DNA of 64,000 bases, taken from the sequence record OR544954, one strand, 5' to 3'. Shown piece after piece: positions 18,352 to 36,607 of this stretch. The translations under genes were made by a program, and so were the position numbers. The stretch comes from Escherichia phage vB_EcoM_EP32a. The notes under the pieces were generated by a model that worked only from the letters and a program-made list of their open reading frames with translations, did no database searches and had not been told where the DNA came from. Each line of letters opens with the position of its first letter. The first letter of the stretch is position 1.

Positions 18352-18891
18352 ATGAGAACATTTTTAACTGGACCTTATCTATCCCTGATGAATGCTTTTA
18401 CACACCATTCTGATGCTAGAGTAGAAGAAATTTGTAAGAACGGTTATGTCCCGCCATTTGAAGAAGTACTCAAGCAGTACTGTACACTTCGTTTAGACGG
18501 CGGCCGACAATCCGGTAAATAAATTGCTGTGACTAACTTTGCTGCTAATTGGCTGTATGATGGTGGAACAGTTATTGTTCTTTCTAATACTTCAGCTTAT
18601 GCTAAAATTTCTGCTGGCAACATTAAAAAAGAATTTTCTCGTTATTCTAGCGATGATATTCGATTCCGTTTATTTACTGATTCTGTTCGTAGTTTTATTG
18701 GCAATGAAGGTTCTAAATTCCGTGGATTAACGCTTTCTCGTATTCTGTATATAATTGACGAGCCTATTAAAGCTCCTGATATGGATAAGATTTACAATGT
18801 ACATATTAAAACAGTCCAACACTGTTGCAAAAGCAAATATTGCATCGGCGGTAATGCTCGTCCTCAATTTTTTGTGATTGGAATGCAATGA
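18352..18891 (+). CDS. putative P-loop NTPase interrupted by in-frame TAA (18520-18522) directly after the Walker A lysine
   Basis: ...LRLDGGRQSGK-TAA-IAVTNFAANWLYDGG...ILYIIDEP in one continuous frame; GxxxxGK is followed by a stop where S/T is expected; Walker-B-like IIDE downstream. Confidence 0.4.
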
Positions 18892-19196
18892 TGACCACTA
18901 TTGAAGTTTTTGAGTATTGTTATAACAGTCCAGTATGCAATAAAAGGGCCCTTGTAGAAAATTACGAGATTTACCATTTTAAACCTAAACGATATCGTTT
19001 GACTAAAGGTCCGTTCGCAGGGCAGCAGGTTCTTTGTACTGCTCCTAATGCACGACTGATGACTAGTATTCCACATTTCAAAATGGAATTTATTGATGGG
19101 CCATTTAAGGGATTAATCACTCAAAGTTTAATGGCGTTTAATTCCGACCCATTTTTGATTAAAGAAAAATCTTGGATAAATTTATTTTCTAATTGA
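18888..19196 (+). CDS. hypothetical protein
   Basis: 102-aa ORF, ATGA overlap with upstream ORF. Confidence 0.45.
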   Translation: MMTTIEVFEYCYNSPVCNKRALVENYEIYHFKPKRYRLTKGPFAGQQVLCTAPNARLMTSIPHFKMEFIDGPFKGLITQSLMAFNSDPFLIKEKSWINLFSN

Positions 19197-19202
19197 GGTT
19201 AT

Positions 19203-19565
19203 ATGAAAGCATATCAAATTCTTGAAGGTGCACATAAAGGCACTATTTATTTTGAAGACGGTACTCAAGCCAGGATTATTGTCTCTAAGACTTTTAAAGA
19301 AGACGCTATTGTAGACCCGGAAATTTTCTACGGTTTGAATGCCCGTGAAATTGAAATTGAACATCAACCTAAAGTTAAAATTGAAGGTGGACAACATCTG
19401 AACGTTAACGTTCTGCGTCGTGAAACTCTAGAAGATGCAGTTAAGCATCCAGAAAAATATCCGCAGCTGACCATCCGTGTATCTGGTTATGCAGTTCGCT
19501 TTAACTCTCTGACTCCGGAACAGCAGCGTGACGTTATCGCTCGCACCTTTACTGAGAGTCTATAA
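19203..19565 (+). CDS. autonomous glycyl radical cofactor (GrcA/YfiD-like)
   Basis: C-terminal ...[59 protein letters not shown] carries the RVSGY glycyl-radical motif and matches, as I recall it, E. coli GrcA. Confidence 0.8.
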
Positions 19566-19789
19566 TGGCTAAATTGATTATAGAAGGGTCTGAAGATGTT
19601 TTAAAATGTTTTGCCGCCTGGTTTAGTTGCTCAGGCGAGCAATCATTCACTGAAGCATTTAGAATGGGTGATATTACTGGAAACTATCCGACAACTGATA
19701 TCACTGTACGTGGATATGGTATTAATGAGCCTATCCAATTGGTCGAATATGACCTTGCCACCGATGAGGAAATTCCTTATGTCGATTGA
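19565..19789 (+). CDS. hypothetical protein
   Basis: 74-aa ORF, ATGG-coupled to the GrcA-like gene. Confidence 0.4.
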   Translation: MAKLIIEGSEDVLKCFAAWFSCSGEQSFTEAFRMGDITGNYPTTDITVRGYGINEPIQLVEYDLATDEEIPYVD

Positions 19790-33852: not shown

Positions 33853-34326
33853 ATGTTATTATCTGGCAAATTATACAAAGAAGAAAAACAAAAATTTTAT
33901 GATGCACAGAATGGTAAGTGTCCTATTTGCCACCGTGAATTAGACCCTGATGTTCAAGGTAACCATCTTGACCACGACCACGAATTAAACGGGCCAAAAG
34001 CAGGTAGAGTTCGTGGGTTACTCTGTAATCTGTGCAACGCAGCAGAAGGCCAAATGAAGCATAAGTTCAACCGTTCCGGTCTTAAAGGACGTGATGTCGA
34101 CTACCTCGAATGGCTTGAAGCTCTTCTTGCTTATTTGAAACAAGATTATTCTGATAATAATATCCATCCTAATTTTGTTCCAGACAAAACTAAAGAGTTC
34201 TCAAGACTAGGTAAAGAGGAAATGATGACTGAGATGCTTCAAAGAGGATTTGAATATAATGAATCTGATACCAAAACACAATTAATAGCTTCATTCAAAA
34301 AGCAGCTTAGAAAGAGTTTAAAATGA
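33853..34326 (+). CDS. 49: recombination endonuclease VII (Holliday junction resolvase) gp49
   Basis: MLLSGKLYKEEKQKFYDAQNGKCPICHRELDPD...HLDHDHELNGPKAG; 157 aa as in T4. Confidence 0.95.
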   Translation: MLLSGKLYKEEKQKFYDAQNGKCPICHRELDPDVQGNHLDHDHELNGPKAGRVRGLLCNLCNAAEGQMKHKFNRSGLKGRDVDYLEWLEALLAYLKQDYSDNNIHPNFVPDKTKEFSRLGKEEMMTEMLQRGFEYNESDTKTQLIASFKKQLRKSLK

Positions 34327-36140
34327 AAATTGAAAAAGAAATTGAAGGATTAATTCATAAAACTAATAAAGATCTTTTGAACGAGAATGCTAATAAAGAT
34401 TCTCGTGTTTTTCCAACTCAACGGGACCTTATGGCTGGTATTGTGTCTAAGCACATTGCCAAAAATATGGTCCCGTCTTTTATTATGAAAGCACATGAAA
34501 GCGGAATTATCCATTTCCATGATATTGATTATTCCCCTGCTCTTCCATTTACTAATTGCTGTTTAGTAGATTTAAAAGGAATGCTTGAAAACGGGTTTAA
34601 GCTAGGTAATGCTCAAATTGAAACGCCTAAATCGATTGGTGTTGCTACTGCAATTATGGCACAAATTACCGCACAGGTTGCTTCACATCAGTACGGCGGA
34701 ACGACTTTTGCTAATGTAGATAAAGTACTTTCTCCTTATGTTAAACGCACCTATGCAAAACATATTGAGGATGCAGAAAAATGGCAAATTGCTGATGCGT
34801 TGAATTATGCCCAATCTAAAACAGAAAAAGACGTATACGATGCATTTCAAGCTTATGAGTATGAAGTAAATACTCTTTTTAGCTCAAACGGTCAAACGCC
34901 TTTTGTAACAATTACATTTGGTACTGGAACTGACTGGACTGAACGAATTATTCAGAAAGCAATTCTGAAAAATCGTATTAAAGGTCTTGGTCGTGATGGA
35001 ATAACTCCTATTTTCCCTAAACTTGTTATGTTCGTTGAAGAAGGTGTTAATCTTTATAAAGACGATCCGAACTATGATATTAAGCAGCTTGCGTTAGAAT
35101 GTGCAAGCAAAAGAATGTATCCTGATATTATTTCGGTTAAGAACAATAAAGCTATCACTGGTTCATCTATTCCTGTTTCTCCAATGGGTTGTCGTAGTTT
35201 CTTGAGTGTATGGAAAGATTCGACTGGAAATGAAATTCTTGATGGACGTAATAATCTTGGTGTTGTAACACTGAATCTTCCTCGTATTGCGTTAGATTCT
35301 TATATTGGAACACAATTCAATGAACAGAAATTTGTTGAGCTATTTAATGAACGAATGGATCTGTGTTTTGAAGCCTTGATGTGTAGAATTAGTTCTTTAA
35401 AGGGTGTTAAAGCAACTGTTGCTCCTATTCTTTACCAAGAAGGTGCATTCGGGGTTCGTCTTAAACCTGATGACGATATAATTGAGTTATTTAAAACCGG
35501 TAGAAGTTCAGTGTCCTTAGGATACATTGGTATTCACGAATTGAATATTCTTGTCGGTCGTGATATTGGACAAGAAATTTTAACTAAAATGAATGCTCAT
35601 CTTAAGCAGTGGACTGAAAGAACCGGTTTTGCTTTTAGCTTGTATTCTACTCCTGCTGAAAACCTGTGCTATCGCTTCTGTAAACTTGATACCGAGAAAT
35701 ATGGAAGTGTAAAAGATGTTACTGATAAAGGCTGGTACACTAATAGTTTCCATGTTTCAGTAGAAGAAAATATCACTCCGTTTGAAAAGATTTCTCGCGA
35801 AGCCCCATATCATTTCATTGCGACTGGCGGACATATTTCTTATGTTGAACTTCCAGATATGAAAAACAATTTAAAGGGTCTTGAGGCTGTATGGGATTAT
35901 GCTGCACAACATTTAGATTATTTTGGTGTTAATATGCCAGTAGATAAATGTTTTACATGTGGAAGTACTCATGAAATGACTCCTACTGAAACCGGATTTG
36001 TTTGTTCTATTTGTGGAGAAACTGACCCTAAAAAGATGAACACCATAAGAAGAACATGCGGTTATCTTGGAAATCCTAACGAACGCGGATTTAATCTCGG
36101 CAAAAATAAAGAAATCATGCATAGGGTTAAACACCAATGA
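34323..36140 (+). CDS. nrdD: anaerobic ribonucleoside-triphosphate reductase NrdD
   Basis: 605 aa as in T4 NrdD; C-terminal glycyl-radical region and Cys cluster CFTCGSTHEM...CSICGE; no intron. Confidence 0.9.
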   Translation: MKIEKEIEGLIHKTNKDLLNENANKDSRVFPTQRDLMAGIVSKHIAKNMVPSFIMKAHESGIIHFHDIDYSPALPFTNCCLVDLKGMLENGFKLGNAQIETPKSIGVATAIMAQITAQVASHQYGGTTFANVDKVLSPYVKRTYAKHIEDAEKWQIADALNYAQSKTEKDVYDAFQAYEYEVNTLFSSNGQTPFVTITFGTGTDWTERIIQKAILKNRIKGLGRDGITPIFPKLVMFVEEGVNLYKDDPNYDIKQLALECASKRMYPDIISVKNNKAITGSSIPVSPMGCRSFLSVWKDSTGNEILDGRNNLGVVTLNLPRIALDSYIGTQFNEQKFVELFNERMDLCFEALMCRISSLKGVKATVAPILYQEGAFGVRLKPDDDIIELFKTGRSSVSLGYIGIHELNILVGRDIGQEILTKMNAHLKQWTERTGFAFSLYSTPAENLCYRFCKLDTEKYGSVKDVTDKGWYTNSFHVSVEENITPFEKISREAPYHFIATGGHISYVELPDMKNNLKGLEAVWDYAAQHLDYFGVNMPVDKCFTCGSTHEMTPTETGFVCSICGETDPKKMNTIRRTCGYLGNPNERGFNLGKNKEIMHRVKHQ

Positions 36141-36607
36141 ATTATGATAGATTTTATCCTTGCGATTTTGTGAATGGCCCTGGTTGCAGGGTCGTTCTTT
36201 TCGTTACAGGTTGTTTGCATAAATGCGAAGGGTGTTATAATAAATCAACATGGAACGCTAGAAATGGTATTCCATTCACGGGTGAAACACTAGAGCAATT
36301 AATTGAATGTTTGAATAATGATTATATAGAAGGATTAACTATAACTGGAGGAGACCCTCTCTATCCCGATAACAGAGATGTTGTTCATTGCATTGCTCAA
36401 ACAGTAAAAAATCTTTATCCCAATAAAAGCATTTGGTTGTGGACAGGATATAAGTTTGAAGATATTAAACAACTAGAAATGCTTAAATATGTTGATGTTA
36501 TTATTGATGGGAAGTATGAGAAAAATCTTCCGACCAAAAAACTGTGGCGAGGATCAGATAATCAGCGACTTTGGTCAAATACCGATGGGGTGTGGAAACA
36601 TGATTAA
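36137..36607 (+). CDS. nrdG: anaerobic RNR activating enzyme NrdG (radical SAM)
   Basis: GCRVVLFVTGCLHKCEGCYN (CxxxCxxC); ATGA overlap with nrdD. Confidence 0.9.
   Translation: MNYDRFYPCDFVNGPGCRVVLFVTGCLHKCEGCYNKSTWNARNGIPFTGETLEQLIECLNNDYIEGLTITGGDPLYPDNRDVVHCIAQTVKNLYPNKSIWLWTGYKFEDIKQLEMLKYVDVIIDGKYEKNLPTKKLWRGSDNQRLWSNTDGVWKHD

Follow-up and report, generated by a model that had tools for sequence, protein, structure and literature searches.

The open reading frame at 19203–19565 on the plus strand of Escherichia phage vB_EcoM_EP32a (record OR544954) is very probably the ortholog of T4 vs.6 (Y06I), a PFL spare part by homology, with a 3′ half that appears to have been overwritten by host grcA. 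Coordinates refer throughout to the whole 64,000-nucleotide stretch of DNA that was analyzed, called the window. A phage GrcA is in itself already known, the T4 protein having been characterized in 2001 and close relatives being annotated GrcA; as first stated in a sequence-only reading, which described a GrcA/YfiD-type glycyl-radical cofactor acquired fairly recently from the host, the finding is a rediscovery of T4 Y06I/Vs.6 and adds no new biology. What looks new is the joining of a 3′ half that is near-pure E. coli DNA to an old, phage-specific 5′ half: the phage is strictly lytic and destroys host DNA, yet it carries a near-pure host tract of ∼170 nt, the sole one in 64 kb. The added value of the present analysis lies in a corrected acquisition claim, in evidence for host-specific recurrent conversion, and in the rejection of direct NrdD repair. 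No description of a mosaic structure or host conversion of vs.6 was found in the searchable literature, the reach of which stops short of Wagner et al. (2001) and the T4 genome review.

T4 Vs.6 corresponds to the protein named Y06I in Wagner et al. (2001, BBRC 285:456). According to PMC8683613, with which PMC13450708 agrees, only YfiD and T4 Y06I have been validated as spare-part proteins; both receive their glycyl radical from PFL-AE and bring oxygen-cleaved PFL (cPFL) back to activity. The vs.6 gene was also among the few uncharacterized ORFs conserved in all of the T4-like genomes compared in 2006 (PMC1524935).

Gene identity and context

The ORF consists of 120 codons beginning with ATG and ending with TAA. 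The features on which the analysis depends are listed below.

19203..19565, plus strand: vs.6 / Y06I ortholog, putative GrcA-like autonomous glycyl radical cofactor, 120 aa plus stop
19195..19198, plus strand: Shine-Dalgarno sequence GAGG, 4 nt before the vs.6-ortholog ATG, read directly from the sequence
19203..19382, plus strand: phage-type 5′ half, codons 1–60, diverged homolog of the GrcA N-terminal region
19383..19553, plus strand: host-derived tract, codons 61–117, grcA sequence of E. coli type that codes for the glycyl radical domain
19485..19487, plus strand: predicted radical glycine Gly95, codon GGT, in RVSGY, aligning with YfiD Gly102 and PflB Gly734
19554..19565, plus strand: last three sense codons GAG AGT CTA and the TAA stop, phage-type

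The source phage is T-even and belongs to Mosigvirus, with AV109 (98.6%) and APCEc01 (97.8%) as the top nucleotide matches, and the corresponding gene APCEc01_184 carries the RefSeq annotation GrcA. Identity of the ORF to T4 vs.6 is 91.5% at the nucleotide level and 93% at the amino acid level. The neighbors vs.8, vs.7, vs.5, vs.4, regB, vs, and tk are common to the window and T4, and the position of vs.6 in the vs-regB-denV early region is kept in Tevenvirinae, with identical order in APCEc01, T4, KEN37, and fGh-Ecl01. Identity and gene order together mark the ORF as the ortholog of T4 vs.6 (Y06I) in Mosigvirus. The Shine-Dalgarno sequence and the TGA that ends the preceding vs.7 ortholog (18888–19196) overlap, as do the TAA stop and the start codon ATG of the vs.5 ortholog (19565–19789), a tight spacing that indicates probable co-transcription and translational coupling with the neighbors; a scan for promoter and terminator signals around the gene gives scores no higher than the shuffled expectation.

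Further upstream, the ortholog of T4 vs.8 / APCEc01_182 (18352–18891, plus strand, 180 codons) contains an in-frame TAA at 18520–18522 in place of the TCA of APCEc01 and T4, which encodes the Ser of a Walker-A-like GGRQSGKS motif, and the gene is thereby split into two ORFs. This TAA could be an ochre mutation, could mark a pseudogene, or could be a sequencing error.

Domain content and family membership

The encoded protein matches Pfam Gly_radical (PF01228) at 2e-18 (67.3 bits, cutoff 22.2), the YfiD structure 6OWR at 2e-42, the PflB structure 1H16 at 3e-26, and E. coli GrcA (L001:1347-1727) at a BLASTP E-value of 8e-53. Residues 61–120 correspond to GrcA 68–127 and are identical at 60/60 positions, RVSGY included, in agreement with the match that the sequence-only reading had given for the C-terminal 60 residues. 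The similarity is thus not merely distant and the radical glycine is kept, Gly95 being invariant in 14/14 phage and host sequences aligned; the window protein was aligned with 11 other phage homologs. The protein is small and stand-alone (∼14 kDa), the ORF being clean with its own Shine-Dalgarno sequence and ATG and the flanking small ORFs being unrelated, and the assignment as a GrcA/YfiD-type glycyl-radical cofactor carried by the phage is borne out by these matches.

Placement within the family is less strict. The NCBIfam GrcA equivalog model TIGR04365 aligns with residues 18–120 and scores 159.1 bits, slightly below the cutoff of 170 because the N-terminal half has diverged, compared with 233.9 bits for E. 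coli GrcA. Scores for the short GrcA2 and GrcA3 families (NF008341 and NF038360) are 95.7 and 106.6 bits, both below the respective cutoffs of 145 and 158. The 121-position profile phrog_1209 matches residues 1–120 at 9.1e-63, with the phage-type N-terminus included. On these scores the protein is best filed in a phage Vs.6 subgroup of GrcA-like proteins and not as a strict GrcA equivalog. Homologs of vs.6 are present in 1,478 of 50,697 phage records, in groups that include T5-like, Aeromonas, and jumbo Erwinia phages. The PHROGs label of phrog_1209 is still ‘unknown function’ although the T4 protein was characterized in 2001.

Comparison with known proteins shows where the phage protein departs from each. 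T4 Vs.6 has the same length (120 aa), gene neighborhood, and mosaic junction, and differs from the window protein at 8 residues, 7 of them in the N-terminal half; the T4 protein has R73H in the radical domain, where the window protein retains the E. coli residue, whereas at the nucleotide level the T4 3′ half has 3 differences from E. coli grcA and that of the window has 10, with phage-type last codons. E. coli GrcA/YfiD is likewise a stand-alone protein of ∼14 kDa with identical C-terminal 60 residues and radical Gly, but its N-terminal half is only a distant homolog of that of the phage (14/39 identical in the aligned part, or about one third), the phage protein is 7 residues shorter, and grcA adjoins ung whereas the phage gene lies in an early-gene cluster. 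The C-terminal glycyl radical domains of PflB (1H16) and TdcE have the same sequence that defines the fold and share ∼80% identity with the phage protein over the last 60 residues, but PflB is a 760-aa enzyme, whereas the phage protein is the detachable radical-bearing piece alone and has GrcA-specific rather than PflB-specific residues. GrcA2 and GrcA3 share the glycyl radical domain but are ∼80 aa long and do not have the N-terminal extension of the phage protein.

Mosaic structure of the gene

Nucleotide comparison divides the gene into two parts. Over the last 183 nt, identity to E. coli grcA is 94.5% and the 10 differences are all synonymous (dS 0.26, dN 0), and within these 183 nt the 171-nt tract 19383–19553 has 7 differences, again all synonymous; the first 180 nt, in contrast, are ∼49% identical, with dS about 2 (saturated) and dN 0.69. 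The maximum chi-square method places a breakpoint after window position 19380 (chi2 = 96, reached in 0/2000 permutations), and GC3 in the window gene rises from 0.23 (5′ half) to 0.35 (3′ half). Close identity to host grcA, for which the sequence-only reading had proposed a nucleotide-level comparison, is thus found over the last 183 nt but not over the first 180. Likewise, the fairly recent host acquisition that it had suggested holds for the 3′ ∼171–183 nt but fails for the 5′ half. The 3′ half is considered recent because its dS of 0.26 from E. coli grcA is lower than the values separating E. coli from Citrobacter and from Salmonella over the same segment; for these 180 nt, E. coli grcA has 13 differences from Citrobacter amalonaticus (dS 0.36), 21 from K. 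pneumoniae (dS 0.56), and 29 from Salmonella (dS 1.0). The corresponding 3′-half dS is 0.046 for T4 (3 differences), OES_C-2 has one difference, and in an NJ tree of the 3′ halves Tequatrovirus and Mosigvirus are nested inside Escherichia with 97.5% bootstrap. G/C to A/T changes account for 7 of the 10 differences of the window from E. coli grcA, as expected of host sequence decaying toward the 37% GC composition of the phage.

At the 3′ end of the gene, the codons GAG AGT CTA are identical in the distant phages RB16 and K14-2, whereas E. coli has GAA AGC CTG; the host-derived tract therefore seems to end ∼10 nt before the stop. When the entire 64-kb window was compared by megablast with 5,426 complete E. 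coli genomes, the match was found only at 19381–19573, together with weaker matches of the same tract to pflB.

The 5′ half has 89% nucleotide identity to T4 and 74% to both the Klebsiella Jiaodavirus KEN37 and Enterobacter Karamvirus, and its dN/dS relative to T4 is 0.055/0.444, or about 0.12; by these values it is old, belongs to the phage lineage, and is under purifying selection. Q5, K29, D34, and R48 are invariant between the phage 5′ half and the host GrcA N-terminus, so that the 5′ half remains recognizably homologous to host GrcA and the whole gene therefore probably descends from a grcA captured long ago. On the nucleotide comparisons, then, the ORF is a mosaic in which a recently host-converted 3′ half is placed on an old phage gene. 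Transfer in the opposite direction, from phage to host, was considered and rejected: host trees follow host relationships, and the host copies of grcA are host-like in composition.

Amino acid identity by itself would have been misleading with regard to timing. In the E. coli phage RB16 (L087:1360-1722), compared with E. coli grcA taken as L001:1347-1730, the C-terminal 60 residues are 60/60 as in GrcA despite 31 synonymous differences (dS about 2, dN 0), and amino acid identity alone is therefore no proof of recency. RB16 instead points to extreme purifying selection that keeps the protein exactly identical to that of the host, apparently without recent DNA exchange, and for vs.6 selection appears to demand such identity.

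Host-specific alleles among phages

With E. coli grcA as query, megablast over the full set of phage records gives 752 matching records, 639 of them at 95–99.5% identity; the match spans nt 200–384 of grcA in every one of the matches listed, and 0/752 records cover 80% of the gene. K. pneumoniae grcA matches 106 phage records at 95–98.2%, nearly throughout from Klebsiella phages among the matches listed, in which the match spans nt 199/202–369/374. In the 3′ half, 21 diagnostic sites distinguish the E. coli allele from that of K. pneumoniae. The E. coli base is present at 21/21 of these sites in the window, APCEc01, T4, and OES_C-2, whereas the Klebsiella base is present in Jiaodavirus at 17/21 (PSE-D1) and 16/21 (KEN37), and the 5′ halves of all six are orthologous. 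GC3 in Jiaodavirus is 0.22–0.25 in the 5′ half and 0.60–0.63 in the 3′ half, compared with 0.67 in K. pneumoniae. Between the window and Karamvirus the 5′ dS is 0.64 and the 3′ dS is 3.0, and the two halves therefore appear to have had different histories.

Host sequences for these comparisons came from a GTDB scan giving at least 80 grcA loci, with the exception of K. pneumoniae grcA, which was taken from a chromosome misfiled in PLSDB; K. aerogenes grcA was left out on account of an indel and a truncated CDS. The PLSDB plasmid entries concerned, CP125156.1 and LR134122.1, hold a K. pneumoniae chromosome of 5.37 Mb and fragments of the K. aerogenes chromosome.

Taken together, the host-matched alleles in Tequatrovirus/Mosigvirus as against Jiaodavirus, the common 5′ junction, and the differing 3′ ends make it probable that the radical-domain half has repeatedly been overwritten by the grcA of the current host through homologous recombination while the N-terminal half was inherited vertically. 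The simplest reading of the sequences is that host grcA replaced the 3′ half on two or more independent occasions, always within the sole part of the gene similar enough to recombine. Homologous recombination is efficient in T-even phages. The 5′ boundary common to these phages falls where the strongly constrained domain begins and, taken alone, cannot count as a recombination endpoint.

Finer subdivisions of this history were also considered. In a relative-rate test the window and T4 have 9 and 2 lineage-specific differences from E. coli, and at p=0.065 separate conversions in Tequatrovirus and Mosigvirus are not established. Within Mosigvirus (Av-05-like) the 5′ half shows 2 differences and the 3′ half shows 7, all toward the E. 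coli state; AT-biased decay of a GC-rich tract accounts for this pattern equally as well as re-conversion within the genus. A scan of IMG/VR (80 loci) yielded no third host-specific lineage beyond the E. coli and Klebsiella types, and the T5-like, Karamvirus, RB16-like, Krischvirus, Aeromonas, and jumbo-phage versions have 29–56 differences from every sampled host.

Several individual phages deserve mention. In the Tequatrovirus OES_C-2 (L097:429-785) a 6-nt deletion just upstream of the junction gives a protein of 118 aa, and the 3′ half differs from E. coli grcA by only 1 nt and keeps the E. coli form, AGC CTG included, up to the stop; the tract ends therefore vary among phages. The RB16-like Klebsiella phage K14-2 (L085:1501-1863) has the Klebsiella-type residues E77L (GAA to CTG, all three bases) and K81E, in a 3′ half that is otherwise not Klebsiella-like (38 differences), which could be the result of short-patch conversion or of host-matching selection. 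In Klebsiella phage KPV15 (NC_055715, L096:1322-1683) the vs.6 homolog is annotated in two pieces, 1322–1471 and 1528–1683, and the IMG/VR copy (L125) has only an 80-aa ORF; the 5′ half is seemingly disrupted and the Klebsiella-like 3′ tract is intact, with 98.2% identity to K. pneumoniae grcA. The IMG/VR contigs L117–L122 and L128 form a separate group of phage GrcA-like proteins of 130–137 aa with a longer N-terminus (GDLSGSIWLIE.NKARCLVAKEV), closer to host GrcA than the T-even type and with 3′ halves nearest to Pasteurellaceae grcA (30–39 differences); this group may represent an independent capture.

Origin of the two halves

Had an intact E. coli grcA been taken up lately, the entire ORF would be host-like, and the identical C-terminal 60 residues and the 94.5% identity of the 3′ 183 nt are as such a capture would leave them. 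The 5′ 180 nt, at ∼49% identity with dS about 2 and dN 0.69, are not, and this half is common to T-even phages of other hosts, at 74% nucleotide identity with Jiaodavirus and Karamvirus. Coverage of E. coli grcA stays below 80% in every one of the 752 matching phage records, GC3 rises from 0.23 to 0.35 within the ORF, and the within-gene breakpoint (chi2 = 96, 0/2000 permutations) refutes recent capture of the whole gene, the probability of which is considered close to nil. At the other extreme, a single ancient capture without later exchange would attribute the 3′ similarity to protein constraint combined with convergent host-optimal codons. The constraint is indeed extreme, as RB16 demonstrates, and grcA is expressed at a high level in the host, with biased codon usage. 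Nevertheless, constraint alone yields dS about 2, again as in RB16, whereas the window and T4 tracts are closer to E. coli than are the grcA genes of Citrobacter, Salmonella, and Klebsiella (97.5% bootstrap), which have similar codon bias. Convergent codon bias cannot be the explanation because these similarly biased hosts differ at 13–29 sites while each phage tract groups with the genus of its own host, Jiaodavirus having Klebsiella alleles at 16–17 of the 21 diagnostic sites; moreover, codon bias would not start at a single codon boundary within the gene. One ancient capture without later exchange is accordingly regarded as highly unlikely.

The favored sequence of events is that an old phage lineage took up the whole of grcA, the 5′ half of which would then have diverged into a selectively maintained, phage-specific N-terminal region, while the 3′ half would have been overwritten by homologous recombination, with E. 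coli grcA in Tequatrovirus/Mosigvirus and with Klebsiella grcA in Jiaodavirus. Overwriting of this kind would leave the radical domain an exact copy of that of the current host. The vs.6 tract would then be a clean natural marker of host-to-phage recombination in T-even phages, the Klebsiella sister phages carrying the Klebsiella version, and, if the reading is true, recurrent natural gene conversion from host to lytic phage keeps an auxiliary protein matched to PflA and PflB.

Function and alternative roles

The function of the window protein is inferred because of its 93% identity to the T4 ortholog and its identical radical domain. Rescue of oxygen-damaged PFL, suggested in the sequence-only reading, agrees with what PMC8683613, citing Wagner et al. 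(2001), reports for T4 Y06I, and by homology would extend to the window protein. In the proposed mechanism, oxygen would cleave host PflB at its own radical glycine, host PflA (the PFL-activating enzyme, a radical SAM protein) would abstract hydrogen from phage Gly95, and the activated 60-residue phage domain would dock where PflB had lost its C-terminal piece, so that the repaired PFL would again convert pyruvate and CoA to acetyl-CoA and formate. The benefit to the phage would presumably be sustained fermentative production of acetyl-CoA and ATP during infection under microaerobic conditions or fluctuating oxygen. The literature searched yielded no infection phenotype for a vs.6 mutant.

Two other roles were weighed. 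As a decoy or inhibitor, the phage protein would titrate the PFL-activase or block cleaved PFL and thereby redirect host fermentation. Its N-terminal half is strongly unlike that of the host, the counterpart region of YfiD lacks order and helps PFL-AE to install the radical (PMC13450708), and the score falls below the GrcA equivalog cutoff; these points speak for a decoy. A decoy, however, has no need for an exact, repeatedly refreshed catalytic radical domain complete with its glycine, and the T4 ortholog restores PFL activity according to PMC8683613 and PMC13450708, making this role very unlikely. The other role, also raised in the sequence-only reading, is that of a spare glycyl-radical domain for the phage NrdD, which would likewise be cleaved at its glycine by oxygen. 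The genes nrdD and nrdG are present in the same window as had been claimed (34323–36607; nrdD at 34323–36140 and nrdG at 36137–36607), NrdD belongs to the glycyl radical enzymes, PMC1524935 put forward nucleotide metabolism as a speculative role, and spare parts for other glycyl radical enzymes were deemed conceivable in PMC8683613. Against this, the protein has no detectable similarity to the NrdD of the window (BLASTP E=6.3 at best) and the glycine loops do not align; the loop of NrdD, RRTCGY, sits in a Zn-ribbon C-terminal domain and not in a PFL-type domain (PMC4493059). Furthermore, the phage domain is identical to the PFL-specific host GrcA and tracks the host genus, which is sensible only with host partners, and its partners are therefore likely to be host proteins (PflA/PflB). 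Rescue of NrdD did not survive these comparisons and is extremely improbable.

Relation to anaerobic nucleotide synthesis

Although direct repair of NrdD is rejected, an indirect link is plausible. Formate is the reductant or co-substrate of class III ribonucleotide reductases, T4 NrdD included (PMC4493059), and spare-part repair of host PFL might keep up the formate supply for the phage class III enzyme encoded by nrdD and nrdG, with PFL-made formate as the NrdD reductant. The T5-like and jumbo phage groups with grcA-like genes likewise have NrdD. The link connecting PFL repair, formate supply, and anaerobic dNTP synthesis by the phage in the gut would be testable. Next to these genes, a 157-aa ORF at 33853–34326 on the plus strand contains a CxxC…HLDHDH motif and has a 4-nt overlap with the start of nrdD; its homolog is annotated in relatives as recombination endonuclease VII (gp49).
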